Assembly (NCBI GenBank): GCA_964187785.1
Contig: OZ076409.1
Coordinates: forward strand, 50,036,001-50,100,000
Source of the DNA: Amphiscolops sp. MND2022
Taxonomy: Eukaryota
DNA: 64,000 bases
Direction: 5' to 3'
How positions within the stretch are numbered: the first letter of the stretch is position 1; every line of letters begins with the position of its first letter. The position numbers and the translations under genes are program-made. The notes under the pieces are model-generated. The model did not search any database. It saw only the letters and a list, made by a program, of their open reading frames with translations, and was not told the origin of the DNA. Positions 2,226-64,000 of this stretch are shown here, one piece after another.

Positions 2226-2269
2226 TACAACAACAAGAACAAACTGATCCTATCAAATTTGAAGTATAC

Positions 2270-7279: not shown

Positions 7280-7380
7280 TCTAGTCATTCTATCTGTTGG
7301 CTTACTCAAACCTAGTCACTCCGGTTGAATAAAGGTTGAATAAATGAAATAAAACTCATAACAAGTTATCTTACAGATAA

Positions 7381-25849: not shown

Positions 25850-28800
25850 TTAGGACTCGTCAGAAGATTCGACTCTTGTAGTGCGTTTTCCCCGGCGACT
25901 AGGTTTAGTTAAACCGTCATCTGACAACTGATCCTCCTGATCGGCCGACCCACTAGCAACTACTGACAACACTAGGGTTTTGCCACTTTGAGGTTTCCCA
26001 CCAGTTCGACGTCCTATAGATGACGGTGTTCTCCTCCCACTGTTTCTGCGAGCGGCACCACGAGTCTTCGACGGTATGGCAGATTTAGAGATAGTAGACG
26101 CAACCACATTAGTATCCTTACTCGGCGTTTTTAATTTCACGTCGGACTGACTACGAGGCCTTTTAGACTTAGTTCCTGATCCTGAGGGCAGCGCAGTGAG
26201 TTTAGGAGAAGCACGGATAGGGCTAACTGCCATGACTTTCATCACATTCAGCTGTGCAAGTATAGTCAACCTGTACTCATCCACAACAGGCACTACAGGT
26301 ATCTCGGGTCCTTTGTCCAACAACGCCACGCAAAACGATAAGCTTTGATCTAACCCGACCTTCAGTAATTGGTCCCAGGGCTTGGCCCGAACACTATCGG
26401 ACAGACGAGAGACTTGCATGTCCGTCGTCTCAGCAATACGCGATAGGCCACGTAAATCACGGCGTGGTTTTCCATGAAGGAATGTCCGTACCAACTACGA
26501 ACTATGTGTAAGCTTGAAGCAAGTTCATCGGGGTCCAAAGCGGTAGCGACGTCATCAACAAAATCAGCTCGGTAACTACTGACAACAACCACACTGAACA
26601 TTAAGTCTACTATTTGGCGCAATTGAATACACCGACCCCAATGAGGATAAGAGAGCCACATAGCTATCACATCTTCTACAGCGGGAAGCTCTTCTGCAGA
26701 AAATGACCATCGCTTCTTAAAGAATTGCGTGACTTCTCTGTACTGCTGCTGTACTACACCGCTGTCATCCAAATCGACTAGTCCGTGGGCAGTCAAGACA
26801 GCACAAGTCTCCACTAATGAGTCCACACGACGATCATCCGAACCTTGGTGTATAAGCACTGGGTCAAAAGGTGTCAAACTCAGATGCTTCGGCCAGGTTC
26901 GTTGCCATAATCCACTTACCCCACGACACAAACCCACTAGCATCTTCTGTACTGCCTTGTAGAAGAAAGACAGTTGGGAACTGATGTCGTACCAGAAATA
27001 TTGCCCGAAGTGCATCTTGTACAAACGAGCATCGACATCCGCACAATCAGAGTCAATGACTTGAAGCAGGGCAGTAATCTCGTACTCTGCAGGAATGCTG
27101 GTAACTGGGTGAATGAACCTCATTGAGCCGCGCAGGAAGTGAGCTAGTTCCCTCTCCACAACAACGCCTTAGTCACGACCACGTCCACACAGTCGAGGAC
27201 AATGCTTCAAAACTGCAAACAAATTAAAGTACAATATTGACTTTAGTACCGAAAATGATTTCTCACTACTACCACGGAAAAGGTAACACACACACAAAAA
27301 AAGAGCGACTAGAAACTTCCTTTTAAAAATAAAAAAACACTGGGTTTTTTTTCTCCCCTTATGCAAATTGCTGATTCATACTCACTCAAATCCAAAACGA
27401 GCCGCAAGATAGCAAACCGAGGACGGATCATCGCGTCTTCGAACACCTGGACTTCCAGTGGAGTAATTGGTCGTAGTTCTGAGGTGACGTTTGGACGGTG
27501 CGTCCCGAAATACAACGATAAATCGTTCCAGTACTCCACAATTTCTGCACAGACTGATGCTAACTGAGTGATGTCCCCCCCACCGACGCGTACATACTAG
27601 AACAACAGAAATAAATTTGCGTTTCATAACCAACACCAAAACAACCGTTCAAATACATAAGCCTTATGCTACACTTTTCAACTACAAAACAAAGAAAAAA
27701 AGAGCAAAGGTTGGAAATAGCAATTTCAAAAATACTTGTACTACTTTATAACATATTCACCTGTCGTAACAATGGCAATCGATCCAAGAAGTTCTCCTGG
27801 ACTACAGGCAGCATTCTCACGCGGAAGTATTCCAATACACTGAGTGGGTGCAGTCCTGAAAATTCCACCCGGAATTGCCTCTGCACCTCATTGAAGACTG
27901 ACTTTGCCGTTAAGAGTTCAACCACGAGAGGCGTCTTGGGAGCTACCATGCCCGCCACTGCTCTCCCAACGTGTGTCTTTCCTTCGACCGCCACAGTTTT
28001 TAGCAATGTTCTGTCCTTCAGACAGGCAAGCAAGGGTATCACATTGCCCAGCATCCTCTTCTCCCATCCAGTTCCATCAGCCACAAGAGCGAGTACCACA
28101 GACTTCACACCATGATTGCCGATGATGTGAAGCTCGCCACGCCACTGCAATCCACTCCGACGAATGCTGACGCCAATACATGAACTCGCCTCCACAAGGG
28201 TATCCAACTGCTTCACAATGTACGGATAACACCCGTACACTACCAGACTCTAAATAACAAACAACGTCCTAAACGTAACGACATTAAAACTACAAACTAA
28301 CACATCATACATGATTTAGCAATGCAGCACGACTCTCTACATGTTGAGGAGATATTAACTAAAACAACCTGACAACGCGCGTAGTCCAGCGTCCGGCACT
28401 CGAAATGCAGTTCATTTGCCATGCAATTTGGCCCAGCATCCACTGAATGGAGAACCCCCTCGAAAGACCTCGTAACCAAGAAGCTGGATATGAAATTACT
28501 CAGCCACAGATAACCCACACAATTGTCCGCCAAATGTGGTCGCGCCCCTTTTGTTGCCTCAGCTTCTTCAATAGCCATGCGCTCTTCTACTGTCAAGTTC
28601 AGGTCCGTTTCCATAAAAACTGGCGGTTCCGTCGAACGAGCAAGTCTGATCCGGCGATCCTCATCTGCAGATACAGGCCTGCAGGACTTGTCTAGGAGCG
28701 GTCTGTGGGTCATTATCCGATATTTTTGCTCCAAACGGGTGTGCTCCACCCCCTTCCAAAGATCCCACAGAGATGAGATCCCGCGTCCAGCAATGCTTAG

Positions 28801-30253
28801 GTCCGCCCGGCATAGCAGACAACGAGCGTAACCATCAATCACTCTCTTGTTGCGGGGGAAACCAACGAAGGTCCCCACAACACTCGACACAAAAAAGGAA
28901 GGTTTCAGCGTTTTGATCTTCTTAGTACGCGCTGCAACAAACAAGTAAACCCGAACATGTTGGAAAAGCTTAAAAAAAACTTTTAACTCTTAGTATAGAG
29001 ATGTCTTTGTCAACACTAAAACCTTTCCCCCTTAACCCCCCCATGATCTTATGAGATTCTTACCAGGTGTAACACCAGTCGACTTCGCAACACTGGCTGG
29101 GCCGACCACAGCACTCTCGCCGAACAATGATGGCGCGACTGACTCCTGCAGACTGGCAACTGAGGGAGTCACAGGGACAACCGATCCAACTGACACCACA
29201 CCTGCAGGCAATGTCGGAGTCACAGGCACATCGTCTCCAGAGACGGCAACGCGCGAACCACTGACAGGTCTCAATTGCGATACTGCCGAAACCAATCGCT
29301 GAATGAAATCGTCCACACTACCGCGCCCACAGTGCCTAAACGACCCAGGGTGGATTCAACTGTTGCCTTGACAACACCAGCCAACTCCTTTTCCAACCGA
29401 GTAATCGCAGCCACTACAGTGTCGACACTCAAAGCGGAACCACTCGTAACACCTGGAATACATTACAAAGGGTAAACAATGCTGTTACCATACATACGTC
29501 ACCCCTAACAATAACCTCTCAGACAATACAACTATGTTAGTGAAACTCAAAGGACACCTGTCATACGGTATTACCAACAGAAGACTGCAACGATGCCTGT
29601 CCTACGCCATTATATACAGAAGATACCAAGCTGTACACTTACCACTCTGAGCGTAGCAGAAATCCCTGAGCCCAGATTCGCACGCACCCATGCTCGCTGC
29701 ATCAACTGACGGCTCAATGGACTGTAGCATCCGCCGTAACATGGCCACAATATCGTTCATATTCAAAGACTCTACAACAAAACGGGGACGTGTCTTAACA
29801 CCAACGTTTCAACCGTCTACCCAAGGTAATAATTACCGGGAAGAGCCTACAGAGTGCCGCTAGTTAATCATACCCTGCATTAACGATTCTATGCACGCAC
29901 GCACATTACCTTGATGAGCTTCGAAGGTAACCACAAATAATAAGTGCCTACCCTTATCAGAAGATTATCAATACAAAGAAGACAAATACATTTTTTTTGG
30001 AAGTACTCACGGAATTCACTGGAGAGTATGCTATTTCTAGTAATGTGGTAGCACCTTCCACATTGGCCTCATCTACTCGCCGAGCGAACTGACAACATAA
30101 CGGCCGAGTCGCACCCTCCAGTAATTCGTCCACTGATGCGACGAGCTCCTCCTCGTCCGACGAATGGTCCAAACTAGACAGCTCCGCTAACACTCCTTCC
30201 GCCACTTGTACTAATGATGAAACTTCTCCTTCCGATAATTCTTCAGCGGCCAT
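25850..30253 (-). pseudogene. Antisense multi-exon gene of element 2; zinc-finger, hAT-transposase-like protein (~1130 aa), slightly decayed
   Basis: Exons by GT-AG and phase matching: 30253-30011, 29771-29643, 29452-29064, 28931-28369, 28249-27761, 27596-27386, 27212-25850. The exon 1-2 link needs a small unresolved exon. Lesions: frameshifts near 29316 and 26490, TAA at 27169-27171. Motif CLLC-x16-L-x5-H. Confidence 0.75.
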
Positions 30254-31175
30254 TTTTAACAAACAATCAATAACAATCAAACAATAACTAATGTCAAAGC
30301 ATACAAACAATCTCTGGAACAAATTTGCGATCTACCAGGTTTCAGCAGCTATCGTTATACAGAATGAGGATTGATCACCCTTATCATCTGGGAATGATAG
30401 CCTACTACCCACGTCAAAGAGGAATTTGAGAAAATATTACTCGAAGCACACCCATTTCGACAACTCTACCAATCAAAGAACCACAAAGTTCGAATTTCAC
30501 AGATCGCTATATTTCTCCCGAGAAAGGAAAATTCAATGCACAAAATTTCCTAATGTACTTCCCCGCCTGAACGATTCGAAAATGACCATTTTGATTAGCT
30601 CACTTCCACCTGGTATACCGCTCAATAGCTTACAGCAATTCCAACTGACAACAACTCAATCGTGACGAAAGGTTTAATTCATTCACTCGGGTTTGGCATC
30701 GACGAAGATTTGTTTACAAAGCGCACAATATTTCCACTACCACTTACTTCCGAACAGTTACCGAATAAGCCGAGTAATTATGTCACGATGCCACGTAAGA
30801 TTGATTTCCGGCTACCTCACTCTACTCGAACTCGCTTACTGCAATCAACGCGCACAATTGGATGACGTGGCTACCCTCGCCACATCGACTCTATATTTAC
30901 TCTTTACTGAGGTGGAACTTTCAACACGCGACTAACATTTCCTTCCTCTTGCTTACCATATCGAGATGAAATAACAATCAATCCGACTATTGCCAGCTAG
31001 GAAGCCAACTTGTCACTGCCAACGTGGTTGCTATGGCAACATCACTGCTATCTTCAATCAACAAATATTACGAGTTCAAGTTTGCAAATTGGAAAGCAGC
31101 GTACAAACTATCTCACGATTAGAAGAGACTATGCACCATCCCCGATACATGTTCTTTTTCAAAAAAGACCCGGAG

Positions 31176-45044: not shown

Positions 45045-47037
45045 CTCTTCTTGCAAGTCAGCAATTTCCCTTTGTTCCGCTTCTCCTCTCAGTTGCTCCA
45101 GGCGAGTTTGCAGTTCTTCTTGCTCTTTCAAAATGTTTAGCTCTAAATCGAGAAATCGTCTTACACTTGATGTTTTTTGAAATCACAGAGGTTTTGTTGC
45201 TTTTGGTTTTGTCACCTTGCGGGAGTATGCTCAATTCTTCTATTGGCAGCGATCTACCTCTGTTTTTGGATCTTCGAATGTTGTGACCATCGTGTTCCTT
45301 TTGCGTGTCATCAAGTTCCGAAACCTTTGTAGATCGTATTTCATTTTTACAGGATTTGTCTACTGCCGCGTTCGCACGAAGTTTGCTAGTCTTTATTCAG
45401 GTTCTTCAAGACTTCGCAAAAGGGCACCCTCGTCTCCTGACTTCAGCAAACCATCAATGTTCGTTCTGATGTCAGACCTTTTCGGCAGCAGTTCTTGACA
45501 TGCTGCAGCATATTCTGCTTTGTAGACTTCTTCGCCTTTTGCGAGTTTATCATCGCGCAGCCTTTCGTTCCTATGCATTCTTTCATCAACAGAATGTTTA
45601 GTTTCCTCAAGATCCTAATAGTTTTGTATCTGCTTTTCACCTTGCAATGCTGACATCAGCATTTCACCCTATCAATGCTGGAGTTTTGATGCTGCCACTC
45701 AACAAAGTGGCCCTGCATCCCTTCGTTCACTGCTGAGAACATTTCGGGTGTCTCAAGCCGGTACTTGACTTTGATTGCCTTTTCGACTGCCTTAATGAGC
45801 CGTTCTCGCCTGTTTAGGGCATCTGTTCGTCATAACAGTAGCTCTGCTTTTTGTTTATCGTCATCATCGCTAGTTAGGTTTTCATCAAATGCTTTAACAG
45901 TCTTTCCGTGCTCGACAGCTGCATTCCAATAACTCAACATTTGGACTTTTTCTGCTGCATTTTTCAGAAAGTTTTCAATTTTGTTGATATTAAACTGTTG
46001 TGTTGGTTGAGCCACTTCTTCACTTTTCCATTTAATTTAGTTCCAATGTCACAAAAGCACACACGCCCAGAATCACAATAGCCCAATCTCCCAGAGACAC
46101 AAAATCCCAATCTCCCAGAGACACAATAGACCGATTCTCCTAGAGACACAATAGTCCAAACTCTCCGGGTCACAGTAGCACAATTTCACTGGGACACAAT
46201 AGCCTAAGTCTCCTAAAGACACAGTAGTCCAAACTCTCAGGGTCACAGTAGCACAATTTCAGAGAGACACAATTGCCCCAATAACCTAGGTTAAACACAA
46301 TGTTGTACCTAGAAACAATAGCACAGGCTCCGATATTCAGACACCTGTTCTTCTTGGGCAATCTTGTCAGTTGTCCACCAACGAGTCGTCTTCATCCTCG
46401 TCTTCTTCCGGTCCGGGTCGAACTGATGACGTCCGGGTCGGCGTACCAAATGTAACGGCTGCATGCCCTTAGCCTGTGCTGAGGCTTCACAAGCTTTACG
46501 CCGCCCTGATCCGTTGCTTAGTACTGTCGACCATCACTAAGCAAATCCTGGTTTTCTTGTTTTGAAGTACTGTATCTTTTGGCTGGTGGGTCCGATGTGC
46601 CCCGTAGGATCTCCTGCGATCCCTCTTTACACTTGTTTGGGTCAGCTGATGCCTTCGACACACTTCTCTCACTGTATTTTCACGCGCTTCGGCTCTCCAA
46701 CTATGAGAGTAGCTACTTAGTCGTTCTGACTCTAGCGGAAAATTGTGAAGATTTAGAAGTTGATTAATTAGTCAATTGGTCATAAGACCCAACTTGACTA
46801 TAGCCATTCAGTCGTGAGAATCTCTCTAGTAATGGTCTAGATCCGGTTTACCTAAATCCGGTCTAAATCTTCAGTAAATAGAGTAAATATAAATAAGTAT
46901 AAATAAATGACAGTTAGAGCATAATATGAAGTTATTGATTAAGTAAACAAAGTATGTGGTGGTTTTGGCATGTTGATTAGGTGGGTTAGAAGGTATGTTT
47001 GTACAATGTAAATATCAATAAGTTCAACAGAGTTACA
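45045..47037 (-). mobile_element. Truncated reverse-oriented LTR element: LTR 47037-46451, PBS, repeat-rich leader, decayed coiled-coil ORF
   Basis: On minus strand TGTAAC..GTTACA termini (587 bp), then TT and TGGTACGCCGACC; ~22-bp tandem repeats 46060-46320; broken ORF from 46015 (MAQPTQQF..). Superfamily (possibly BEL/Pao) not resolved. Confidence 0.6.
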
Positions 47038-47191
47038 TTTCCTTCAAGGTCGTATAAGAAATTCACATAATAACTTGCATAGCAAAAATGAGTTTCCATG
47101 GGGTCCGGCCTAGGTCACTTTCGGTGTTAATTGCCCTGAACCCTGGGGAGATACGGGGTTGATTGCATCGAGTGAAAAATTAAGTTAGCAC

Positions 47192-49556
47192 TGTCACAGT
47201 CCGCTCCCGGACTGGTTTGCGGCTGCAGACGAGTAGGATACGGACGTGGGCACGGCTGTACAGCAAAATTGGCAAACAGGTATTTCAGATACTGACTCAA
47301 ACTGTAGTTAATGTTTAAAATAAACTGTGACTGAAAATGAAAATACGTCTAGTGTGCGCAAATCTAAAAATGAAAATGGAAACAGAGAAACACTTAGCCA
47401 AAATGATTTCATACATTTCCGGCAGGACGTTCCCATAACGCTGAATTAAACAATTTACACCTGAAAATTAAATTAAAAGATGTCTTAGGAAAAGATCATA
47501 GACTAAACTAAACAAGAATACAGGCACAAATTATCTCCAAACAGAGTACATTAGCTGGATCTAAAATGGAAAAACACTTTGAAATATATATATAGAGCGA
47601 TTACGCCTCGTCAAAATAAGGCTATTTAATTGCGTTTGAACAGCAATTAAAGTGGTTTAGAACGCACAGATTGCGCAAAGCAAACAATACGGCAGTGAGA
47701 ACTTGGCTACATGTATATTTGTCGTCTATAGAACGCAGACAAGTTTTGAAGGTATACTGAGTGACGTCACTGCCTCGCCTATGCATACCAAACTTCATTC
47801 CAATTATCCGCCTATATCAACCACTATGCTAGGAAATCATTCCAATTTACCGCCTGTGTGACGTCACAATACTAGTAACTAGCTGCTAACTTGTCTCAAA
47901 ATACGCGTCAACGGTGTGGCAAACTTGGCAGAGCTTAGTATTGCCAAGAAAATGCGTCACAGTGACGACGACAAGTTTATGAAATCAATTGGAAATAGGA
48001 AAACCTGTCAAAATAACAGGTTTTATCCTCATGTTTAATTCGCAGCTTCATAAGGAATATGATAGTGGCTTTTCTTAATCCGTATTGCAGACGTTTCGTC
48101 AATGTCAAGCTATCTGAAATTTCACACTTAAAACATATCTGATATAGGTGTAGTATAAAATCCAGTTAGTGCGTTAATTAGTCGTCATTGCACTTTTTGA
48201 CAATAGAGGAAACCTACCCGGGTATCTTTTAGATGAGATTTCACATGAAGTTAAGCAAAAGTCACAGTTTATACTCACGTTCAGTGCGGGTAAAACATAT
48301 TTTGTACCCAGAAATGTATTTTCATAAGTTTGTACCTTTTACTTTCAATTTGCCAAATATGTACATGATAATTGTTGATGCGATCATTTCCTTATCTACG
48401 TTCCCCTAATGGGTTTGGGAAATGTCGTGCTGATGACGGAATTGTAATTGTGAAAGTGCTAACTGTTGTTATACTATTGGTTTTGTAAAATGTGACGCAA
48501 TTGATGCGACAAACCAAGCTTTGTATCTGTTTTTCTTTATTTTGTTGGAATTCATGAATGTTAACTTTATTTCTATAATTGCGTTATTCATCCAAAATAT
48601 TCTCCTAGCATCGATTAAATAATCCTAGTTTGGAATTAGTCATTGCATTTTTATCAAGTTGAAATTCAAAATCAGGTATTAGTTGTTCACGTCAGCGTCA
48701 TCCTAGCGTCAATTTCCCGCGAACCGAAGCAGCAAAACAGGGAATTATTTCCGGTTTGATAGACTGAAGTAATATCTACTTCCTGCTCGGGAGGAAGCAA
48801 AAGGACGCCGGAATGAAATGATATGAATATGTGTGATGACTAATACTAAAAGTAGAACATCGTGTCTCAAATTTTGTCGAATTGTCGGCGCACTTTTGGG
48901 ATTTTGATGATTTTTTCACCGAAAAAACAGGAAATGACTAATTATTTTAAAAAATTTGGGAATATGTACGTGATCAAATGATGCTAGGAGGGTATATATA
49001 GGAAGTGCAAATTTTTCTGAGGGACTCAGTCTTTTACCAGTGCTGCAACCTAGTTGTCCCAAACTTGTTGTTCTCAAACTACTCTCATTCTTCTAACTCT
49101 GTTGAAAATCAGAAAGTAAAATTGAATCCTTCAAGAATAAATCTTTCTTCAACAACATGTCTACAACACGAAGCCAAAAGAGAAAGAATATCCAGCGAGA
49201 AGTTGACGATAATGTAAGTGAAGGCTTTGTTTCGCCAATAAATGCGGAAAATTCTCATCCTTTAGATCAAAACGTAGAATTAGCAGGTCCTTCGAGGCCC
49301 AAGTCCCCCAGAGTAGAAAATAGTTTCTTGGAAAGCATAAGGTCCTCCCTGAAGGAAGAAATAACGTCCGAGATTAAGACTCTTTTGCTCGAGTCCCAAA
49401 AGGAAATGTTGAAACTCTTGAGATCTGAAACGAGAGAAAACGTAAGAGACCATGTATCAGAAGAACTAGAAAATGAAACAAGAAGCTTCTATTTTCCGAC
49501 GAAAACAGTGCGAATTAATTCTACCCAAAACGAAGATCATAGCATAATTCGTATTA
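47192..49556 (+). repeat. 5' LTR of element 3
   Basis: TGTCACAG..CGTATTA (terminal CA mutated relative to 3' copy CGTAACA); GTATATATAG near 48993, AATAAA at 49136; about 1% different from the 3' LTR by manual count. Confidence 0.96.
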
Positions 49557-50600
49557 TGGTGACAGGAGTTTTAAACGACTCCACCAATCAACCCAAGAGA
49601 ACAAAGGTCCGATCTCAAAGCCAACCCCCGTCAAAAGAACGCCCAGCAATAACGCGAACTTTGTTCGCCCCAGAACAAACTAACACCACGATGCTACCCA
49701 TGCCAAAAGCTCTAACGGCGTCACTTCCAACCTTTGACGGGAAATCTGAAAAATTCGAGCTCTTTGAAGATCTCTTTAGGAATAATATCAAAATGTATCC
49801 GCACCTTACGGAAATACAAAAGATAAACTACTTCCACTCCCTACTCCGGGGAGACGCCTTACAAGCATTTTGCAACATTGAAGACTCGAAGAAAGACTCA
49901 CTAGACGAGATTATAACGATATTCAAACGACGATTTGGGGACTACCTGTCGATGGCAAAGGCTAGATGCGAATGGGACGCACTAAAATTTGACCCTTCGA
50001 CACAAAAACTCCACGAATTCCTGGATGTACTACAGAGAACTGCAAAAGAAGCTTTTGGGAACAGAGGCACAGCAATTCATAGACAAGGCTATATACGCCA
50101 AAATGCCAGACCACGTCAAGAAAATACTAAACCGCGCATACCTCGAAGACAAACCCTATAACGACATAGTACTCCACCTGGAAAGGGAAATGCGTCTCAA
50201 TGGACTAGGAGCGCCAGACGAGGTAACGCTAGTGCCCTTAAACAAAATTGAACCTGCCCAAACAAAAACTGAACCTAAACCAGTGGAAACTACCGCCCAA
50301 ACCACTAAAAAAGGGTATTGCTTCTATTGTAACAAATTCGGACATCATAAAGCCGAATGTCGTAAAATGAAGAGAGACAAATGGATGCATACCCGAAGAA
50401 ACAATGGACCAACCAACCACAGTGCAGGCAAACCACCCAAATGCGATACCTGCGGCAAACCCCACAAAACAGAGGATTGTTGGAACGGAGCCAATGCTGC
50501 CAACGACCCACGACCTAAGCGTCACAACACACAAGAAAGTAAAAGGGACACCCCCGTCACACAATCAACAAACCAACCCGATGATGAATCAAAAAACTAA
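49157..50600 (+). pseudogene. gag: Gag of element 3 (one frameshift near 50050)
   Basis: MSTTRSQ start in LTR, LPTFDG..LRGDALQAF, two knuckles CFYCNKFGHHKAEC and CDTCGKPHKTEDC. Confidence 0.9.
49557..49569 (+). promoter_or_regulatory. Primer-binding site of element 3 (TGGTGACAGGAGT)
   Basis: Directly follows LTR; identical to element 2 PBS. Confidence 0.8.
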
Positions 50601-50645
50601 TTACGCCGCGCCTGCGCTTTGGGGAAACAGTAGACGCGAGGGCAT
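50591..50645 (+). promoter_or_regulatory. Putative -1 ribosomal frameshift signal (A AAA AAC plus downstream GC-rich stem)
   Basis: TCA AAA AAC TAA ends gag; the -1 frame from 50597 is open into the 50747 protease ORF; CGCG/CTGC..GTAG/CGCG can pair downstream. Confidence 0.7.
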
Positions 50646-53600
50646 ATTCTCCACAAGAACCCCCAACAACGTATACCAACGACACAACTGTAGAGTGCTC
50701 AGGCACCCCATCAGAAGCATGGCTGAGACAACAAGCAATCGCATCTATGAAACGACACCCGCCACAAGAGGATCAAAAAGTAACACCTCCAAACGATCAG
50801 GATTACAGAAACGATTGCCGACATCACAAAAAAACACCCTCTCAACCAATCATCACCACCAAAGAACCCGCTGCTCAGACCCAAGGACACCCAGTTGAAA
50901 ACGTCCACGACGTCTGCACTTCGCCACAAATGTCCGAGAAAGATACATACGGCTCCACCGGGTCACCTATCCTCCACGACAACTTCCCCACCTTCCTCAA
51001 CTCAATTAAAGAATACGTAACTGAAAAAGACGGTAACACTTATATACCACTCCACTCAACAATAGTCCTCAAGAACAGAAGACGAATGCTTTACTTGCCA
51101 TTGGAATTTGGGGAATTAACAATGGATGGCCTTGTCGACTCAGGAGCGTTTATCAATGCCATGTCATGGTCCGATTACAACGCCATTAAAATGAACAGCG
51201 ATAATTGTGTCATAAAGGAGTACCCACCTTACCTCTCAAGATCTTACAATACCTTTCAAGATCGAATGTGCAAACGCACAACTAGAGCAACCTATCACCA
51301 CTGCAGACATTCAATTCAATATTGGAACATACACGTTCACTGACACCTTTGTCATACTATCAAAGACGTCATTCCCCATAATCGGACTGAACTCCATGAG
51401 AAACCACCAAGCAGTAATCGACACAGCCAATGGGACCATCACCTTCCCTCACGTCGAAATGACACTAGCCATGACAGATGAAAAGAAAAATTGTAACCCC
51501 AAACCACTCCAAATTATGGCTGAAGGACATCAGACGTTGCCACCACAACAAACAACAACCGTTAATGCAATAGTCATAACCACCAATACAATCGACATCA
51601 CAGGAGCAGTACAACCGCTCCCACAGTTCGACGAAACAGCCACCATCATCGTTGCACCAGCACTAGCCACAGCTCACAACAAACGAATCAACCTCCGAAT
51701 AGCCAACTTGACAGATTTCCCGCACACCATAAAAAACCACACCAAATTGGCAGAATTACAAATCCTGAGACCGGAGGACACTAAACAAATACGACCTGTA
51801 GACGTCGCAACGCTGACCACCTTACAAGATCCAGATGACACGCACATGTATGTAAATGAGCTCATGAAATCCCCAAACGATGAAAAAAACAATGAAAACC
51901 TCTGGTTCCCAACACCCGAAAACCCGGGAAATGAAGATGAACACACACCAATACAAAAACGAATATTAAAGGAAATCAGAGAACTCATAAAGAAAGAACA
52001 ACTTGATCCCACCAAAGATCCAGAATCAAGGAAAAAATTCCTCGACATGTTCAAATGGGAAGGATCACAGATTGAGGGAAACGACAAGAAACAGCTGGAA
52101 CAAACGATAGTTGAATACAACGACATCTTTGCACGTCACAGACTCGACATCGGCATCAATAATAGCTTCAAAGTAAAACTGACGCCAAAAGATGAACGAC
52201 CCATATACACACAGAGCCTGCCAGTGCCGATCAATCTCAAGGAAGACCTAACAGTCGAATTGGCACTCATGCACAGATATGGCATAATCACGACACTACC
52301 ATTTTCAAAATATGCCAGTCCGATTTTTGCACAACGCAAACCAAACGGTAAACTACGGTTACTGCTCGACCTGCGAAAAATCAACGCACTGATATCTGAC
52401 GATTACATCAACAACAACCACCCAGTCAGCACCCTGTCAGACGCAGCCCAACACTTAGCTGGGAAAAAGCTGTTCTGTAAACTAGATTGCTCTCAAGCAT
52501 ACCACTGTCTGCAAATGGCTGAACAGAGATCAATCGAAATGCTGGCATTCAACTTCGCAAGCAGAACGTTTGCATATAAACGCTTGGCACAAGGACTGAG
52601 CAGAGCATTGTCAGCATTCTCCAGCTTCATGAGAGAATACTTGGACAAAGTAATCAAAGCCGACTAATGCGCGCAATATGTGGACGACATTGGAATAGCC
52701 GCCAACTCCGTGACGCAACTGATACGGAACATTCGAGCCGTCTTCGAATGCATCAGACAAGCAGGACTTAAACTATCTATCGACAAATGCCATTTTGGAG
52801 TGACTGAAGTTGAATTCCTCGGAAGAACAATCACCCCGCAAGGAATCGCCCCCCAAGACCATAAAATACAAAAATTCTTGGCAAACGTACGATTTCCGAA
52901 ATCAAAAAAACAAGTACAAAGATACATTGGCTTTGTCAATTATTATCGCAACTACATCCCGCGATTATCTGAAAAATTACTCGGATTCTATGAGCTACTG
53001 AAAGCAGATAAACAGATCAAAATCACTGAAGAACTACTCGACCATTACAAGGCGATCAACGCAGCGCTGTCGCAAGCCTGTGGATTGACTCTCAAACAAC
53101 CAATTACAGGACGACAATACGTCTTAATGACGGATGCCAGTTTTCGAGCTTCGGGCTACGCATTAATGTTCGAAGAGGACATTGACAAAAAAATCAATTC
53201 CAAAAAGAAGACATTTGCCCCAGTTGCATTCGGATCGAAAGTATTTTCCCCAGCTCAACTGAAAATGTCTGTCTATTGTAAAGAATTCTTGGCAGTTTAT
53301 CATGCCTTCCTTGAATACAGCCACATCCTATGGGAAGCAACCCTACCGACCCTAGTGATGACAGACAACAGATCAGTAACAAGATTTTTTCAAACAAAAG
53401 CGATTCCACCCACACTATGGAACGCATGTGACTACGTCCTACAATTCAATTTCCATATCATGCACGTAGCGGGAACGCAAAATACTGCGGCAGACTTCCT
53501 CTCAAGAATTGACCTCAACCCCAAGGAACGAGTTGAACTGAAGATCCGCGATGATATCACAATACGACCGATACAAGCCAACCTCCAATCGACAGGCGTC

Positions 53601-55553
53601 GCAGATGAGGAACAACTATTTTTCCTTCCAGATGAGACCATCGAAACCGAAGAGGAAATCCTACTACGGAAAGAACAAGCTAGACAAAACGCGCACGATG
53701 AAGCGCCAGTGAAAATAAAAATGGCCATCCAAGAAACCACACCAATACCAATAAACAAAGCTTCATATACCTTTGGCGCAATTAAAGAAGATGCACGCAT
53801 TAGAGTCGAACAAGATTCAAACTTAGTCCTCAAGGCAATCAAAAGGAAACTGACTTGTGAAGAATACGACAAACATCTTCTACAAACTGACCCGACAGCC
53901 AAACGTCTTCTAGTCCACGAAAACAGACTAATAGTCAAAGATGGCATCCTAATACGTAAATATTACGGTGAATGTGGCCAAGTTACGCACCACCAAATAC
54001 TCATCCCTGAGCACTTGATCACAGAACTTCTGAAAGCAATCCACGGACAAATGGGAAAACACCCAGGAATAACAAAAATGATCCAAGAGTGTAGATCTAA
54101 ATACTACTACCCAGGACTAGCGAAACGCATCAAACAATGGGTACAACAATGTGAAGACTGCATCAGATATAAACGAATCAGTAACGCCCAAATCAAACCA
54201 AAAATGATCAACAACACAGAACACGTCCTAGGACCGGAAGACATCCTAGAGATTGACATACTACCTAACCTACCAAACTCTGCGGGATACCAGAATATCG
54301 TCACAATGATAGACGTGTTTTCGCGATATCTATTCGCCTATCCAACACAGAACACCACAGCGAGGACGATTGGCCGATGCATTGTCGATGTCATGACAAG
54401 GCACGCATATCTGCCGACATTAATCCTATCGGATAAAGGCTCCCAATTCCGATCAGAAGTTGTTGCAGAAATAATGCAAATACTAGAAATACAAATCAGT
54501 CATGCTTCCACTAAACACGCTCAAACAATCGGAATACTGGAAAGAACTCACGCCTCAATCAAAACGGCACTGAAAATATCGACGGGCGAACGACGCTCAA
54601 TGTGGCACAAATATGTCCAAATCGCAGTGATGAACTATAACACAACCTACCACGAAACGCTAGGCTGCGAACCTTCCACAGTATTCCATGGACGAATACC
54701 GTACAATATACTAGACCTAAAATTGGGCATCAGACCAAAATGGAAAACTTCATCCAACTCCGACCTAGCCGAACAACTACAAAAACAGATTAACGAAGTG
54801 CGTGCGACGGCAAAGGACAATATTATGTTGTCCTATCTCAAATACAAAAAGTACTATGACCGCAAAGCATCTGCAGCCCCACTGAAAATAAATGATTATT
54901 GCTACATACTCAACCCGAAAGCCGACAGCCAATCGACAAAATTTGCATTCCAAGATTGCATTTGGACAGGACCGTATATAGTGATAAAGGTACTCTCAAA
55001 TAACAACTATACGATCCCAAAAATAGGCACGAGATACACACAAACGCTACATCGGATTATAAAACGCCCTTACATGCCAGAACAACGTCTGCCTGACGTC
55101 ACAGTACGGACAAACGAATATCTCCCAGATCCGGACGTCAAAGTGCCACACAACGAATGGTACGCTGTATCGTGGGAAATGGATTTTGGCAAACAAATAG
55201 ACGAACACAAAGCGACAAGAAGTGCAGAAAACAATCAACAGATAATCACACAAGAAGTGGCGAACACGAATGACGACACAATGACGCAACAATTACCAAA
55301 CAATCAAAATGACGACACACATGACGTGGCACCGACGTCTCCAGATTGTTCAAACCTCACTACTGACGTAGGGGATAATCCATATATACGACGTTCCCCA
55401 CCCACTGAAAGTCAACCTATTCCCCCAAAATCACCGCCTACAGTTGTCGGTTATAATCCGAGGCAAACAGGAAAATACAATTTACGACCTAACCCTAAAC
55501 CTAACGCTAATCCTGACTTCAGAAGACTTGACGCTATCACTCTGACTCAATAG
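50597..55553 (+). pseudogene. pol: Pol of element 3 (frameshift near 51230, TAA at 52665)
   Basis: LVDSGA (protease), QYVDDIGI (RT), MTDASF/MTDNRS (RNase H), HGQMGKH..CEDC, EIDIL, LSDKGSQF, LERTH (integrase), TGPY. Confidence 0.95.
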
Positions 55554-55794
55554 AAAAGCAAATATCAGGAGTCCAGACCGAACCGATCTGACTATTTTCA
55601 ATTCATGGCATACTACGACCATTCTTTTTTCTCCTTTGATCGTCAACATTTTTGATTCTTCAAAACAAACTATTTTTTATCAGAAAAATGATATCTGATA
55701 AAACTAATAAGAACAAAATAACAAAACGCCCGAAGACGCAAAGAAATTATACAACGAATCAACAAACAGTTTACAAATCAACAACGGCCAAATT

Positions 55795-58700
55795 CTATTG
55801 TTTCTTTGTTGCGGCATCAGAACTCTTCCGAGTGGCCCTCTTCACAGGCACTTTAGATGAACCAGCAACTTGCTTCGACCCTGCTCCAGTGTCCTTCTTT
55901 CGACCCAATAACGAGCCAACACTGCTATATAGATGTCCCTTCTCAGGAGTTGTAGCGACAGAAGAACCCACAACAGATGATGATGGACTCTCCGAACATG
56001 ACACAGTTGACACACCGCCCCCTTCAGTAGCTAGCATTTTTCGTTCCCGCCTATTGGCATGACGCAGAACAGAATATGACTCCCCCTTCTTACGACTAAG
56101 GAAGGCATTAAACAACTCCAGATATCGCGCAACAAATGACTCCTGACCACCGCAGCAGATACGCCCCCAAGGATCATAGGAAGCCAAGTTCATGAAGTCC
56201 TGAGCCCCATTTATAGCATCCCGGACGCTATCCATCGTGTGTTTCGTAAAGAAGGCCTTCTGCTTGTAATTCGATGACAAAACACAACTCTGCACCCCAC
56301 GAATACACGACGTAACAGTCCAATACGGAACAGCACAACCTGAAAGGTCAATGTCCACGTCAGGGTGTTTCTGCCGGGGCTTCAAGACAACTAGACAGCA
56401 CAATTCAAACACCCGGCACAGGTTTTTGCGGGCCAGAAATGAGTAATCTCCCAGCAGATAAGAGACGACATCAGGAATATTCTCAGCGATCTCACCACTG
56501 GCGGCATGACAACCTCGGACGTCCACAACAAAGGTACGGAACTCTTCAACAGCTGACTTGCACTCTATGTCCGAAATAACCCCACAACGCTCCAAATGCC
56601 GAGCCAATCGGTTAAACATGTCAAACACATGCTTGTCATCACCTTCCAATAGGAGTTCGGGGCAGAAACAATACAAGCTACTCGAGAATCCAGACGACGC
56701 TGCCTGTTGTGCTAAGATCAACTCCACAAAACGATCGATAAATTCGCGACAACGATCTTGAAAGTCACGACCTTCACCCCCTTTAAATTCACGCAGCATA
56801 GCACCGAAATCATAGGTTTGCCAGATTTCGGCTGTGGGTATCGCGTCATACTGAGACAACTTAGACACGTCCATATACTCTTCCCATGCATTGACATTCG
56901 GCAGAGATGAAACACGACGACTCCGTGACAACAGACAATACACTAGTTGACATAGTTCCATATAGGCATGTAAGCCATAATCTGCGCGTCTTTGCTGCTG
57001 CTTCTTGAAACAGACTGCGTCTAAACACATCAACCCGTCTACATCTGCCTTCAACTAAATAAGACGACACACAGACGACAACTTACAAAGTTCCAAGACA
57101 TGTTTGAGCAGACCCAGACGGAACACATTCGTATTCTCGGAGAAAACCAGCCAGTCCACACCTCGCATCTGAAACAAATCGAACCACATCAAATCTCACT
57201 AGCAAAACAATCCAACTTTGCCAACCCCACAAGACTCCAAAGAAGGAAACAAAACGAGGGACGGATACACAAAAAAAAACACAAAACTTACTATGTCAGT
57301 AGAACTCTTCAGGTGCCGAGCCCCAGTGTAACGAACATACTCCTTGACGAATTTCCACACAAGAATCAGCTCCGTGACGAAGCCACACAAGTCAGCAAAG
57401 GGTACCCGCCCAGCGACAACACAACGACGAACGACGGTCACGTCCTCCATCCACGGCTCTTGGAGTGCCCCACGCAGACGTAACACCAGAAAGTCAACCA
57501 TCGAAGTCACCTCGAGCATGCCGAAGACCTCTTGATGAGCCTCACGGAAACATTGCAGTAAGGCCTCCTCAGAAAATTCCTGACCCAAAACGAACTGCCG
57601 ACCATCAACTCGGTTGTCACTAAGTACGCGCAACAAAGACACACTCCCTCCTTGACATGACATGGGCAATTGGCACGACACGATACTGTCAACCACACGA
57701 GACAAACCAGCCAGCTCTGAGTTCGGGACTTTCTGTCCAGACGCCTCAACATGGACACAGACACAAAACAGCTCATGCCCATCCCAAGTCTGCACATAAC
57801 AGCTATGCGACGTCCCATCATCCACGAAAAACACACTGTAGTCGCGGAAAGCAGCCACGCGTGCGATCATTGATCGAAGTACACGAGGGAACAGGGCTTG
57901 ACAGATCAGCGACTAAAACAACAAATTACCAACGCTCAACACACGGAAATCCCAATACCTACAGACTCATTCAAATACCAAAATTTGCTTCAAGCCAACC
58001 ATACAACTACGATACACCCCCCTACAAAAGCACAAAAAAGAATATAAAATACTAACCAAGGACTCTTCTCGACTCCACTTTAGACTATACAGAGGATTTT
58101 CCGGCCCCAAAGTAGCACGAAAACAGCCCCACAACTTTCTCAATAAAGTATAGCTGCCACCACTGCGCAGGAGTTCCAGCAAACAATTCACTAATGTCAA
58201 CAAGGGAACCGATGAATCGACCTGAGCACAAGCTGGCAACAGATCTTCCGGGAAACTGAACCCTTCGGCTTTCCCCTGGCAGGGACGACTTCGATAATCC
58301 TCCAATTGCGCATCTGTCAGCTCCATTGGATCCATCAGCCGATTGAACACAGGCAAATTATTTTGAACGCGGTAAGTGACGTCCAATTTCCAATGCCGCT
58401 TGCCAAAGCAGTGCCGGCTAAATTCCAACGAACCACGGGACTCCATTGAAACGTCGCGGTGACAAATCATGCAGAAAAAATGTTTGTCACAGCCAGTACT
58501 GGACCCGCTGACAAACAACTGGTAGATAGGGTTATCGCCTGTCATGTCGCGACGAAGTCGTTTCCGCATACTGTACACCCGTTTTCGTTGCCGCTGAGGT
58601 GACGAAATCTCCTCTAAACTGGCCTCGACACGACTCACGAGTTCTTGAAACCCTACAAACACAAAACCAACTTTAATCGAAAAAAAAAGACCACCAGTAT

Positions 58701-59898
58701 GCAATCCCAAGAACACGACTCGGGATATAAAACTACCCAGAATTTCCCTCATTTCAACTACTAACAGAGAGGATGAACAAGAAAAAACTCGCAATTGAAA
58801 CTACTCCAATACAACAATACTCACGAGCAACAAAAGGCTCCACTGTCCGACTCTCCAATTCAGAAGCCACAATTTCTCCCAATCTAGCAGCCTGCTGTGG
58901 CGTACAAGGCAAGGACGCATCAGGAACAGCCTCATCATCAGATGTCTCAAGCTGGAAATCGCTCCGTTGCAGTACTGAACCAGTCTTGTCCACCCGACGT
59001 CGTTTAGAAGCCGACTGAACCATCGCATCATCACTGGTTGATACCACAGTAACTACAAACACAACACCCAAAGCCCAATTACTCAGGAACGTCACTGTGA
59101 CCTACCCCACCCCACACAAGAACACATATCCTATAGAAACTATCAATCTGCAAACAAGAACTTACCATGTTTAATGACGGGCGATGTAGTCTGACTCCCA
59201 AATGTTCTCTCAAACCCAGGCAAATATGAGGTAAATCGTGGGGAAGGCGTTTGCTGGGCACTACGGGAATTTCCCACCTCTACAGTTTTTCCTGGCTGGG
59301 GGGGGGAGGAGCCTCACCTACGTGAGTCGGAGGAGTACAGTCATCGACGACAGGAGACTTGGGTGGAGACAGCCCCGCCGTTCCTTCAGGAGCCCCAGTA
59401 ACTTTATCCTCGACTCTGCCAGAAATCTATTTAGACAAAGGGACATCAAGATCATCTTGCGGTGACGCAGGCGGATCGGGCATCCCAGAAACAGTCTCTA
59501 AAGTAACGACAGTACCACCCTCTAGGGGTATAACCCCAACGGAAGAAAGATCAGCTGGTAGTGGAGCAGTTTCAAGACCAGAAAGAGTGTGAATGGAGGT
59601 AGGAGTGACGTGAGCAGCACCCTCTAGGGAAGAAACGAGAACCGCTCCTGGCACTAAAACGAAATCCCACATTCGACGCGTCAGAAAATCTAAGCTATGA
59701 AAACACAGAAAAGGCCTATCTGTCAAAAGTATATTTCATGAAAGCTTAAAGGAAAGTAGGGATAACAAACTAACCAGGTGCCGGCCGGACAACTCGATTA
59801 TCAGTCTCACTGTCACGAACATCACCATCCGAAAATGCAAACTGCGTCTCGTTACCACTCACAGCTCCTGGATCAATACGACCACGGGACGTAGACAT
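55795..59898 (-). pseudogene. Antisense multi-exon gene of element 3; zinc-finger, hAT-transposase-like protein (~1100 aa)
   Basis: Exons: 59898-59775, ~59653(or 59689)-59166 (TAG at 59427 and a homopolymer frameshift or tiny intron near 59290), 59052-58825, 58652-58057, 57912-57292, 57054-55795; all GT-AG with matching phases. Motifs CMIC-x16-H-x5-H, YSVFFVDDG, KRRR. Confidence 0.8.
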
Positions 59899-60346
59899 TG
59901 CAAAGCGATGAATCTGAAAAGTCAGAGATGAAAACAACAACCGAAAATCTGAAGTCATCAAAACGGTGACAAAACATAAAGTTGGCTTATAACCAACGAA
60001 AATGGCGTCGACATAACGTCGACAAAAAGGTTATCAGGGTTAAGAAATTAACCCTATTTCCTAAAATGACGTCATCAAAACGGTGACAAAATCAGAAGTT
60101 AGCTAAGCTAACGAAATGACGTCAGCATAACGTTGACAAATTTGGCAAATTGACAAATATTTTAATTTGTAGCCAATAAAAACTCGACGTCGTTATAGCG
60201 ACAACAATAAAGACTGAAAAGGATAAAAATGATTAATTAACCAATCAGAATAGAGGGATTTATCACAATATTCGCCTTAATCCTAAATAATCCTAAATTC
60301 ATTGTGGAACAACCAAAACGAAGAAATCAGCTGACAAAGAAAGAAG

Positions 60347-61105
60347 ATGAGCAATCTCCTTGACATCTATGAATTAATCGACATATCCTCGTCAAGTGAG
60401 GAAGAAGGTGAAATCGAAAGAGCATCCACCCCGCTACCAAGAGACAGTCAGGTAAACCCCAGGATAATCATTGAAATTCCCCACTCGTCAGCAGAGGCGA
60501 CGGCAGACGATGAAGAATACCTCGACTTGTCATTAGACTCACTGGAAACTGATTGTAAAAGAATGAAGCTGAGCGATTCTTATACCAGCTTCGAATCGGT
60601 GGAATCTGGGGAGTATCCTCATTCAACTGACTCTGAAGAAGCGCCGGCAGACTCCCCTGAAAGCCCTGATGAACAAGAAAAGGGGGAAGATAACAGCAGC
60701 CTAAATTCTGGAGTGTTCGTTGTGGAAGGGCATTACACACACAGCTCTAAATCAGTAACGAGCACGAACGTTGCAGACTACTTAGAACATGTTACTCGAG
60801 AAGATGCAAGCTCCTTTTTCGACACTCCACCGGGACCATTAAGAAGGGTAAATCGTCGGCCGATAAGCCCACTGAACGACCTGGAAGAAAAAAGGACAGC
60901 AGCAACAAGTTCTAAAAGGAATAACAACTACGAACAGTTCCAGCATCAGCCGTTCCAGTTCGGCCAACCCGGGAGAGCCTTTCGTCCCATGACAGTGGCC
61001 CTGTCACAGTCCGCTCCCGGACTGGTTTGCGGCTGCAGACGAGTAGGATACGGACGTGGGCACGGCTGTACAGCAAAATTGGCAAACAGGTATTTCAGAT
61101 ACTGA
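60347..61105 (+). CDS. Acidic Ser-rich 252-aa ORF of element 3 ending inside the 3' LTR
   Basis: Intact ATG-to-TGA ORF; last ~34 codons lie in U3 (61002-61105); CCAAT boxes upstream at ~60173 and 60241. Confidence 0.7.
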   Translation: MSNLLDIYELIDISSSSEEEGEIERASTPLPRDSQVNPRIIIEIPHSSAEATADDEEYLDLSLDSLETDCKRMKLSDSYTSFESVESGEYPHSTDSEEAPADSPESPDEQEKGEDNSSLNSGVFVVEGHYTHSSKSVTSTNVADYLEHVTREDASSFFDTPPGPLRRVNRRPISPLNDLEEKRTAATSSKRNNNYEQFQHQPFQFGQPGRAFRPMTVALSQSAPGLVCGCRRVGYGRGHGCTAKLANRYFRY

Positions 61106-63356
61106 CTCAAACTGTAGTTAATGATTAAAATAAACTGTGACTGAAAATGAAAATACGTCTAGTGTGCGCAAATCTAAAAATGAAAATGNNNNNNNNNNNN
61201 NNNNNNNNNNNNNNNNNNNNNNNNNNNNNNNNNNNNNNNNNNNNNNNNNNNNNNNNNNNNNNNNNNNNNNNNNNNNNNNNNNNNNNNNNNNNNNNNNNNN
61301 NNNNNNNNNNNNNNNNNNNNNNNNNNNNNNNNNNNNNNNNNNNNNNNNNNNNNNNNNNNNNNNNNNNNNNNNNNNNNNNNNNNNNNNNATATAGAGCGAT
61401 TACGCCTCGTCAAAATAAGGCTATTTAATTGCGTTTGAACAGCAATTAAAGTGGTTTAGAACGCACAGTTTGCGCAAAGCAAACAATACGGCAGTGAGAA
61501 CTTGGCTACATTAATATTTGTCGTCTATAGAACGCAGATAAGTTGTGAAGGTATACTGAGTGACGTCACTGCCTCGCCTATGCATACCAAATTTCATTCC
61601 AATTATCCGCCTATATCAACCACTATGCTAGGAAATCATTCCGATTTACCGCCTGTGTGACGTCACAATACTAGTAACTAGCTGCTAACTTGTCTCAAAA
61701 TATGCGTCAACGATGTGGCAAACTTGGCAGAGCTTAGTATTGCCAAGAAAATGCGTCACAGTGACGACGACAAGTTTATGAAATCAATTGGAAATAGGAA
61801 AACCTGTCAAAATAACAGGTTTTATCCTCATGTTTAATTCGCAGCTTCATAAGGAATATGATAGTGGCTTTTCTTAATCCGTATTGCAGACGTTTCGTCA
61901 ATGTCAAGCTATCTGAAATTTCACACTTAAAACATATCTGATATAGGTGTAGTATAAAATCCAGTTAGTGCGTTAATTAGTCGTCATTGCACTTTTTGAC
62001 AATAGAGGAAACCTACCCGGGTATCTTTTAGATGAGATTTCACATGAAGTTAAGCAAAAGTCACAGTTTATACTCACGTTCAGTGCGGGTAAAACATATT
62101 TTGTACCCAGAAATGTATTTTCATAAGTTTGTACCTTTTACTTTCAATTTGCCAAATATGTACATGATAATTGTTGATGCGATCATTTCCTTATCTACGT
62201 TCCCCTAATGGGTTTGGGAAATGTCGTGCTGATGACGGAATTGTAATTGTGAAAGTGCTAACTGTTGTTATACTATTGGTTTTGTAAAATGCGACGCAAT
62301 TGATGCAACAAACCAAGCTTTGTATCTGTTTTTCTTTATTTTGTTGGAATTCATGAATTTTAACTTTATTTCTATAATTGCGTTATTCATCCAAAATATT
62401 CTCCTAGCATCGATTAAATAATCCTAGTTTGGAATTAGTCATTGCATTTTTATCAAGTTGAAATTCAAAATCAGGTATTAGTTGTTCACGTCAGCGTCTT
62501 CCTAGCGTCAATTTCCCGCGAACCGAAGCAGCAAAACAGGGAATTATTTCCGGTTTGATAGACTGAAGTAATATCTACTTCCTGCTCGGGAGGAAGCAAA
62601 AGGACGCCGGAATGAAATGATATGAATATGTGTGATGACTAATACTAAAAGTAGAACATCGTGTCTCAAATTTTGTCGAATTGTCGGCGCACTTTTGGGA
62701 TTTTGATGATTTTTTCACCGAAAAAACAGGAAATGACTAATTATTTTAAAGAATTTGGGAATATGTACGTGATCAAATGATGCTAGGAGGGTATATATAG
62801 GAAGTGCAAATTTTTCTGAGGGACTCAGTCTTTTACCAGTGCTGCAACCTAGTTGTCCCAAACTTGTTGTTCTCAAACTACTCTCATTCTTCTACCTCTG
62901 TTGAAAATCAGAAAGTAAAAATTGAATCCTTCAAGAATAAATCTTTCTTCAACAACATGTCTACAACACGAAGCCAAAAGAGAAAGAATATCCAGCGAGA
63001 AGTTGATGATAATGTAAGTGAAAGCTTTGTTTCGCCAATAAATGCGGAAAATTCTCATCCTTTAGATCAAAACGTAGAATTAGCAGGTCCTTCGAGGCCC
63101 AAGTCTCCCAGAGTAGAAAATAGTTTCTTGGAAAGCATAAGGTCCTCCCTGAAGGAAGAAATACCGTCCGAGATTAAGACTCTTTTGCTCGAGTCCCAAA
63201 AGAAAATGTTGAAACTCTTGAGATCTGAAACGAGAGAAAACGTAAGAGACCATGTATCAGAAGAACTAGAAAATGAAACAAGAAGCTTCTATACTCCGAC
63301 GAAAACAGTGCGAATTAATTCTACCTAAAACGAAGATCATAGCATAATTCGTAACA
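61002..63356 (+). repeat. 3' LTR of element 3 (contains assembly gap)
   Basis: Copy of 47192-49556, ends CGTAACA then AGCAC. Confidence 0.96.
61189..61388. other. Assembly gap (200 N)
   Basis: N run; flanks match the 5' LTR, where the equivalent stretch is 47379-47589 (~211 nt). Confidence 1.
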
Positions 63357-64000
63357 AGCACCTCTCGTAGATACATGCCAAGTTTCAGGGTGACTGAATG
63401 AGTGGTTCGTCGAAACGGGGAAGGCCCAATTTGCCTCAGTCTCATTTCTGCAGAAACTTGTAATTTTCCAACTAAATCTCGACAAAATTTCAAAGCGTTT
63501 TGAGTTATAGGTTTAATCAGTCACGTTCCAATTTGAGTTTCTGAACTTGCCATTGACTGGCGCCAACACTACTCCTCCAACTACGTTGTCCATGTTACTT
63601 GCACAGGAAGGGGTGCAAACAGGGTGAGAATTTCAACTATCGTTTGCCAATGCGCCAAAAGTTCCTGACAGAGAGCGTGCAGAGCCTCGAGGTCAGTTTG
63701 ACAAGCTCTCATGACCCGGGAGCAAACAAGTATATTATCTTGTTAACAGAGCTTGTTAAGAAAGCTTGTTAACATTGCCATGATAGTGAGAGAAGTTACC
63801 TTTGCAAGTTTTGGCGTCAGTAGAATCCATTCATGATCAGAGCTTGACCCAAGGGACACAATGAGATGTTCTATGACAGAAAAGAAAAGACGCTATGATT
63901 CCTTTTGTGCATCAAAGAAGGTAATGACAACTCTTCAAATTGGGAAGGACACTGTACTCCGAAATGGCTGTAAGAACTTTTGTCAAGTAGCTGGACAGGT

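Follow-up and report, generated by a model that had tools for sequence, protein, structure and literature searches.

The window analysed here, a 64,000-nt stretch of the Amphiscolops sp. MND2022 genome (contig OZ076409.1, positions 50,036,001 to 50,100,000), contains a Ty3/Gypsy long terminal repeat (LTR) retrotransposon, element 3, that carries a large gene antisense to gag-pol, in the interval from pol to the 3′ LTR. An earlier reading of the letters alone, hereafter the sequence-only reading, had placed this gene inside an element with an LTR pair, a matching target-site duplication (TSD) and a Ty3/Gypsy pol, and all of these were found. The 5-bp TSD, AGCAC, occupies positions 47187-47191 and 63357-63361. 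The LTRs are 98.8% identical across the 1965 nt following a gap of N, with 5 CpG transitions among the 23 differences between them. A primer-binding-site-like sequence, TGGTGACAGG, directly follows the 5′ LTR, and the top Protein Data Bank (PDB) match of pol is Ty3 Gag-Pol (E 3.6e-37). Among 18 frames of the window scanned against Pfam, matches were obtained only for gag, pol and env.

As modelled from the sequence, the antisense gene is composed of seven coding exons and six introns on the minus strand (Table 1). A genome search with the frame of the last exon provided the copies for comparison; 100 of its 7242 candidates were scored (identity 51-100%). From these, 40 loci (20 close and 20 distant, chosen by hand) were sampled with 10 kb of surrounding sequence, and one more locus was added. 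Splice-site positions were projected via protein matches, and n is the number of loci among the 41 where the exon end could be projected. Counted from exon 1, successive donors and acceptors were kept in 30/39, 20/21, 24/24, 25/28, 37/37, 38/39, 39/39, 38/39 and 40/40 copies. Donor sequences alternated between GTAAGT, GTGAGT and GTTAGT, and intron 4 varied in length from 101 to 160 nt through all three phases, whereas exon lengths were fixed across copies. We infer splicing from this site conservation together with intron-free homologues: exons 4-7 form a single frame in the homologues of a related family (family 3, see below), which confirms the exon joints.

The sequence-only reading had proposed six exons; its minus-strand GT-AG exons stand, but it had missed the 82-nt exon 57168-57087, and the last acceptor lies at 57020. 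Two of its junctions recur in other copies, 58825>58652 (GT 37/37, AG 38/39) and 58057>57912 (GT 39/39, AG 38/39). The third, 57292>57054, is in frame in the element 3 copy, yet its AG is kept in only 14/40 copies. The open join of ~1100 aa claimed for the element 3 copy fails at exon 2, where a stop lies in frame at 59429 and the frame itself is interrupted near 59300; exons 3-7 are open there over 916 codons. Of the 17 fully mappable copies, 6 have every one of exons 2-7 open; exons 4-7 are open in 17/36. Two copies are rearranged, with an inverted duplication of the gene at L046 and a second last-exon piece at L038. A 661-aa frame at L071, taken as an intron-free copy, was rejected as the last exon fused to a piece of pol.

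Table 1. Features of element 3 and the gene homologue of element 2 (window positions; dN/dS, ratio of nonsynonymous to synonymous substitution rates; RT, reverse transcriptase; ORF, open reading frame)
Feature	Position	Strand	Remarks
Element 3	47192-63356		Ty3/Gypsy LTR retrotransposon; LTRs TG..CA, short TSD, RT-RNase H-integrase order
5′ LTR	47192..49556	+	2.36 kb; final ~400 nt contain gag start (ATG 49158)
gag-pol, Ty3/Gypsy type (RT, RNase H, integrase)	49106..55553	+	several frames in the element 3 copy
Exon 7 (last)	55795..57020	-	~325-codon conserved helical region (predicted) and basic Ser-rich tail; acceptor AG 40/40
Exon 6, 82 nt	57087..57168	-	AG 40/40, GT 39/40, open in 39/40; dN/dS 0.03-0.24
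Exon 5	57292..57912	-	RNase H-like predicted order, low confidence; dN/dS 0.08-0.14
Exon 4, C-x2-C-x16-H-x5-H finger at 58473-58393	58057..58652	-	596 nt in 29/37 copies; dN/dS 0.02-0.15
Exon 3, acidic/Ser-Pro-rich, KRRR	58825..59052	-	length a multiple of three in 28/28; dN/dS 0.22-0.34
Exon 2	59166..59653	-	broken in the element 3 copy; open in 11/20 other mappable copies
Exon 1, contains ATG	59775..59898	-	donor GT 30/39; projection poor in distant copies
Conserved non-coding array	59940..60200	+	four 22-nt near-palindromic motifs (TGACGTCA core in two), palindromic spacers, adjoining two CCAAT-type boxes
Second accessory ORF, ~250 aa, acidic	60347..61105	+	head-to-head with the antisense gene; ends inside the 3′ LTR
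3′ LTR	61002..63356	+	200 N at 61189-61388; then TSD AGCAC
Antisense-gene homologue in element 2 (family 2)	25850..30331	-	distant, broken in that copy

The gene is protein-coding, under purifying selection and a constant part of three related Gypsy families. It is present in other copies. It lies tail-to-tail with pol in 39/40 loci of family 1, that of element 3 (the exception is the rearranged L046), and antisense beside pol in 20/20 fetched loci of family 2 and in 7/7 copies of family 3, one of which has a 2052-nt LTR pair; the loci in these counts were selected by presence of the gene. Family 2 yielded 143 scored genome matches, with splice sites kept, and family 3 yielded 54. Exon profiles of families 1 and 2 match in order (E 4e-5, 6e-6 and 1e-3). 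Searching 1.84 billion proteins with a merged last-exon profile gave 740 at E ≤0.001; all ten clusters examined are ENA or JGI records, some identical to the Amphiscolops genome itself. Starting from one match, P0103, 28 proteins of 526-890 aa were obtained in which exons 4-7 share one frame; the exon profiles lie end to end on P0103 (59-248, 253-445, 496-865), the remaining gap fitting exon 6. No longer database homologues of the last exon were found among 5465 candidates. In pol, families 1 and 3 are 51% identical to each other, 37-38% to family 2, and 23-26% to the env-bearing element 1; these pairwise values may fit one old acquisition of the gene. A phase-0 intron between exons 4 and 5 is common to families 1 and 2 (family 2: GT 20/20, AG 19/19). 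Since these two families share it although the nearer relative of family 1 is family 3, the latter (L144-L148, L151, L152) probably lost it, a loss that would require reverse transcription of spliced antisense RNA.

Selection was measured as pairwise Nei-Gojobori dN/dS between seven hand-defined subfamilies, at unsaturated synonymous sites only and from open exons only, which biases the values toward intact copies. Core exons gave 0.02-0.24, not near 1, in line with the claim of an accessory gene under selection; exon 7 gave 0.05-0.12 in its core and 0.15-0.57 in its tail, and the integrase, for comparison, 0.01-0.05. Most of the distant subfamily pairs were synonymously saturated at dN 0.12-0.48. 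Plus-strand frames across exon 5 contain 3-10 stops.

Elements trade the antisense gene with one another in one piece. For L052 and L056, identity is 92-96% over the LTR start, the second accessory ORF and the array, drops to 46-70% in the gene and is back at 89-97% in the pol end, and the comparison of L052 with L065 has the same edges. Exon-7 and integrase distances are uncorrelated (Spearman 0.06, 136 pairs). Among distant copies, the distances of exons 4, 5 and 7 correlate with one another at 0.95-0.98 but with integrase at 0.01-0.09. In trees of integrase and exon 7, built for 16 of 17 chosen copies, L063 groups with L032/L047 by integrase and with L056/L057/L070 by exon 7, while L067/L068 group with L059-L066 by integrase and stand apart by exon 7. 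The approximately unbiased (AU) test rejected the exact pair L052+L056 in both trees (p = 0.014 for integrase, 3e-47 for exon 7) and likewise L056+L063 (2e-8 and 0.002); exchange therefore rests on topologies and identity profiles, not on AU tests alone. The disagreement of trees and distances indicates that the gene alleles are older than the backbones carrying them. Template switching is an established mechanism, and at the conserved flanks it likely moved the alleles.

Upstream of the gene lie the hairpin array and the head-to-head second ORF, which the sequence-only reading overlooked, as it did the element 2 homologue and the cassette exchange. The first 22-nt motif of the array has 803 exact genome matches versus 0 for a control, and the interval 59900-60340 is better conserved than the exons. 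The mean p-distance of the array is 0.15, compared with 0.23-0.30 for neighbouring exons, and the number of units varies among copies. Folding of the array scores z = −7.4 for the genomic strand and −4.8 for the other, and the array is the sole stable stretch among 38 windows from the pol end to the LTR. Several stem positions alternate between G-U and Watson-Crick pairs on the genomic strand; two-sided changes occur in only 2/59 pairs. It may be an internal two-way promoter, an RNA signal in the form of a stem-loop array on the genomic RNA, or both. Motifs of the upstream region that we take to be CRE- and CCAAT-like suggest that the antisense gene may have a promoter of its own.

The second accessory ORF is present upstream of the antisense gene in 40/40 copies, with dN/dS of 0.08-0.64 and no Pfam match. 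At the same place in family 3, an ORF (L150:5176-5970) has no sequence match to it at E 0.001. A toxin-antidote pairing of the second ORF with the antisense gene was unsupported, their co-segregation being weak or none.

The clearest feature of the predicted protein is its finger. The BED signature is given as Cx2CxnHx3-5[H/C] in the available text of PMC3606216, and the C-x2-C-x16-H-x5-H finger fits it in 18/21 family-1 sequences and in 12/13 and 19/21 further ones. It is the best-conserved part of the protein across families. Against a hAT profile it scores 33.5, above 20 shuffled profiles (≤26.4) and above reversed controls, and the family-2 finger profile, run against 30 frames, matches a hAT transposase encoded in this very genome (E 3e-4); zf-BED itself was not matched in Pfam scans. 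Beyond the finger, a full-length family-3 profile is colinear with hAT over 186 columns, from the finger to the third strand (E 0.019, probability 2.4%). The exon-5 model predicts a helix, three strands, helix, strand, helix, strand and then helices, which is the order of the RNase H core, at a low predicted local distance difference test (pLDDT) score of 53. Foldseek returned several RNase H folds for this model, all at E ≥0.16, with Hermes at rank 13 (E 0.36), and its confident helices 131-198 align to Hermes 280-347 (Z 3.3-3.6). An Atlas search gave 0.82 to a Dimer_Tnp_hAT cluster, a weak value below the Atlas threshold; with exon 5 it gave no usable match.

The protein motifs quoted in the sequence-only reading are all present, but the acidic residues of YSVFFVDDG vary across families. 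Its description of a catalytically dead protein lacking ERxFS agrees with our comparison. No DDE triad, CxxH or ERxFS is kept across the three families, with no acidic column conserved at the expected strand ends; the C-terminal region corresponding to PF05699 has no Pfam match, and an ERxFS-like string occurs in 1/150 matches. For the hAT origin it proposed, support comes from the BED-type finger and the weak colinear profile match; the middle and C-terminal parts do no better than shuffled controls.

Several results weigh against a hAT origin of the whole protein. The larger merged profile retained only the finger match to hAT. The other 7/8 segments scored at or near control level, the middle at 13.7 (shuffled maximum 13.3) and the C-terminal part at 14.6 (19.3), against a hAT profile that is mostly Ac-type and thus no fair test of Tip and Buster types. 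No Pfam match above cut-off was obtained for members of four alignments or for 70 of the 150 matches listed, and PDB sequence searches gave nothing under E 0.17. The exon-7 model is likewise poor (pLDDT 47), is confident only at 110-210 and matches helical bundles, and higher Z values (VIA best 5.4 and 6.2) go to unrelated folds. The hAT match expected from structure searches did not appear: nothing was significant in Foldseek (E ≤0.001) or VIA, and hAT was not among the rows of the VIA wide search, which does not exclude it. On balance, sequence and model comparisons make it somewhat probable that the protein would go back to a hAT-like transposase that the ancestor of the families acquired a single time, with loss of the DDE triad. 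A hAT origin is plausible and unproven, and we do not file the protein as a member of the hAT family.

The reading we favour, tentatively and at less than even confidence, is that of a hAT-derived antisense regulator that would keep the element expressed. An internal promoter opposite gag-pol would drive a spliced, nuclear protein of ~1100 aa, laid out as a disordered acidic N-terminus, the BED-type finger, an alpha/beta core, a long helical region and a basic tail. Introns antisense to the genomic RNA survive reverse transcription by established logic, and those of this gene would persist since the packaged genomic RNA is the opposite strand. The KRRR motif and the basic tail point to a nuclear location, and the finger to DNA binding that would serve the element. 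That it binds element DNA sequence-specifically and maintains expression of the element in the face of host silencing is, in our judgement, slightly less than an even proposition. This picture of a nuclear DNA-binding regulator draws on analogy with Spm TnpA and VANC. Transposases regulate their own elements, and TnpA is derived from one, according to the available part of bioRxiv 10.64898/2026.08.24.746577; anti-silencing of DNA transposons by TnpA and VANC is described there and in the accessible text of PMC13547354. Conflict with sister elements or the host would have produced the deep, swapped alleles. The broader scenario, in which a Gypsy lineage domesticated a whole hAT-like transposase as a dead antisense regulator and now trades diverged alleles of it, is possible but somewhat doubtful.

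Other findings speak against an anti-silencing regulator. Two of the three families, 2 and 3, do without the array, which therefore cannot be a universal target. CpG depletion in the elements is slight (observed/expected 0.8-1.5), so that DNA methylation may not be the opponent. The gene correlates with the array at Spearman 0.50-0.54 and with the LTR start at 0.15-0.22; alleles 40-50% apart beside near-identical cis sequence are unlike a strict lock-and-key anti-silencer. A regulatory role could also belong to a protein of other origin, with a BED-type finger joined to a body derived from another DDE family (Mutator, P or Kolobok, for instance), from a host gene or from a fold not yet recognised. 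The 34-column finger as the sole part above controls, the want of Pfam and PDB matches and of conserved catalytic columns, and top structural matches to KA1/XisI-like sheets and helical bundles all suit such a body. The succession of finger, helical linker, and helix with three strands nevertheless follows hAT order and spacing, and three weak, separate leads (Atlas, Foldseek and the helix alignment) point toward hAT or Hermes; we regard this alternative as unlikely. That the gene is instead a nested or passive DNA transposon that does nothing for the Gypsy element is largely refuted and very improbable. It has a transposase-like outline, and the 150 scored genome matches to PF05699 indicate many true hAT elements. 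No terminal inverted repeats (TIRs) surround the gene, however, and no convincing 8-bp duplication, only A/T-rich chance 8-mers, so that the signs of nesting named in the sequence-only reading are missing; the gene keeps the same place and orientation in three families with pol 37-51% identical, and it combines strong purifying selection with the lack of a catalytic triad.

Two further readings give the protein a different target. As a Rev- or CERV-like factor it would bind the genomic RNA at its stem-loop array and favour export or packaging, for which the fold of the array on that strand, its G-U/Watson-Crick switches and its singular stability speak, along with the spliced export factor encoded by Cer1 of C. 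elegans (PMC10309623, in the portion available). Families 2 and 3, however, keep the gene without the array, the two-sided changes are few and palindromes fold anyway, and BED fingers are known as DNA binders in the available text of PMC3606216; this reading is quite improbable. Alternatively, the protein could tether the integration complex to chromatin or DNA, or act as a self/non-self factor excluding sister elements, with swaps changing the target or exclusion group. Deep alleles exchanged on near-identical backbones fit frequency-dependent conflict, and a finger with a basic tail suits DNA or chromatin contact. On the other hand, a separate antisense transcript gives no obvious way into the particle, and the gene does not co-vary with integrase, which leaves this explanation improbable. 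The hAT-derived antisense regulator remains the reading that we prefer.

Animal Gypsy elements are generally viewed as gag-pol to which env may be added. Plants and fungi have Gypsy elements with antisense genes in this place; the animal host, the BED-type finger and the cassette exchange had no counterpart in the literature searched. The parallel with plant antisense ORFs (aORFs) drawn in the sequence-only reading was confirmed in position and orientation. The gene shows three features of aORF-3R, namely antisense orientation, a position after pol and before the 3′ LTR, and a conserved protein. According to the available text of PMC7264820 and PMC11963269, the plant aORFs of Retand and Grande occupy the same position and orientation and are kept in most copies; that of Grande has its own internal promoter and a nuclear protein, for which DNA binding was proposed. 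The animal gene differs in its ~1100 aa, six introns, BED-type finger, cassette exchange and head-to-head second ORF. The word "intron" does not occur in the text of the Retand paper, and TRP28 had no match to the animal protein in Pfam scans. A non-plant antisense gene placed after pol and before the 3′ LTR is brtn of Boty-like Gypsy elements in Botrytis and Sclerotinia (PMC7264820 and PMC8365987, as available), whose host is fungal rather than animal. In the literature searched, which included parts of PMC6431247 and PMC12992720, there was neither an animal example nor one with a BED- or hAT-like protein, and cassette exchange was not described either; Repbase, supplements and most subscription literature lay outside that scope and could contain an example.

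With hAT transposases (Hermes, Ac) and ZBED proteins the antisense protein shares the BED signature and a similar length, with a weak colinear match as far as the third strand, and it may share the succession of an alpha/beta core and a helical region predicted by low-confidence models. CERV of Cer1 is read from the sense strand, and HTLV-1 HBZ is a small bZIP protein. CERV is a spliced nuclear accessory protein that an animal LTR element encodes (PMC10309623, available portion), and HBZ an antisense nuclear regulator, per the accessible text of PMC11963269. ZBED proteins keep the DDE triad (available text of PMC3606216), whereas the antisense protein has no triad, PF05699 match or TIRs, and is carried by a retrotransposon rather than by the host. 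Spm TnpA and VANDAL VANC are, in the part available of bioRxiv 10.64898/2026.08.24.746577, element-encoded accessory regulators too; they serve plant DNA transposons and act on DNA methylation.

The 803 exact motif matches imply hundreds of copies in families carrying a large spliced antisense gene, which ORF-based annotation would miss and whose protein has no library match. Even in plants, where aORFs come from and what they do is still open, as stated in the available text of PMC7264820. With young copies, several natural alleles, a natural form poor in introns and cassette edges that are sharp, questions of origin, target and selection can be tested here. If the hAT origin is true, the route from transposase to regulator would extend from hosts and DNA transposons to retrotransposons, and one transposon class would have been domesticated by another, with signs of ongoing conflict.

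Among minor features of element 3, its LTR starts within the second accessory ORF and ends ~130 codons into gag, and one family-3 LTR likewise contains a gag-start-like frame. The primer-binding-site-like sequence TGGTGACAGGAG is common to elements 2 (18180) and 3 (49557), although their pol identity is ~37%. No polypurine tract was seen immediately upstream of the 3′ LTR of element 3, and an Rfam search of 47000-64000 gave no match. The genome (1.07 Gb) contains seven pieces that match Wnt, as well as DNA-methylase-like genes. A third, unrelated Gypsy element occupies window positions 1-14000; its pol is 23-26% identical to the others and is followed by plus-strand frames. One of these, the env-like frame 8534-11287, matches the Monjiviricetes fusion glycoprotein family (E 1.6e-24), and three orphan frames lie at 7381-8637, 11531-12880 and 13203-13742. 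Between the Gypsy elements, long palindromes with duplicated inverted repeats at 40494-43808 and 34420-36561 are probably small non-autonomous DNA elements.

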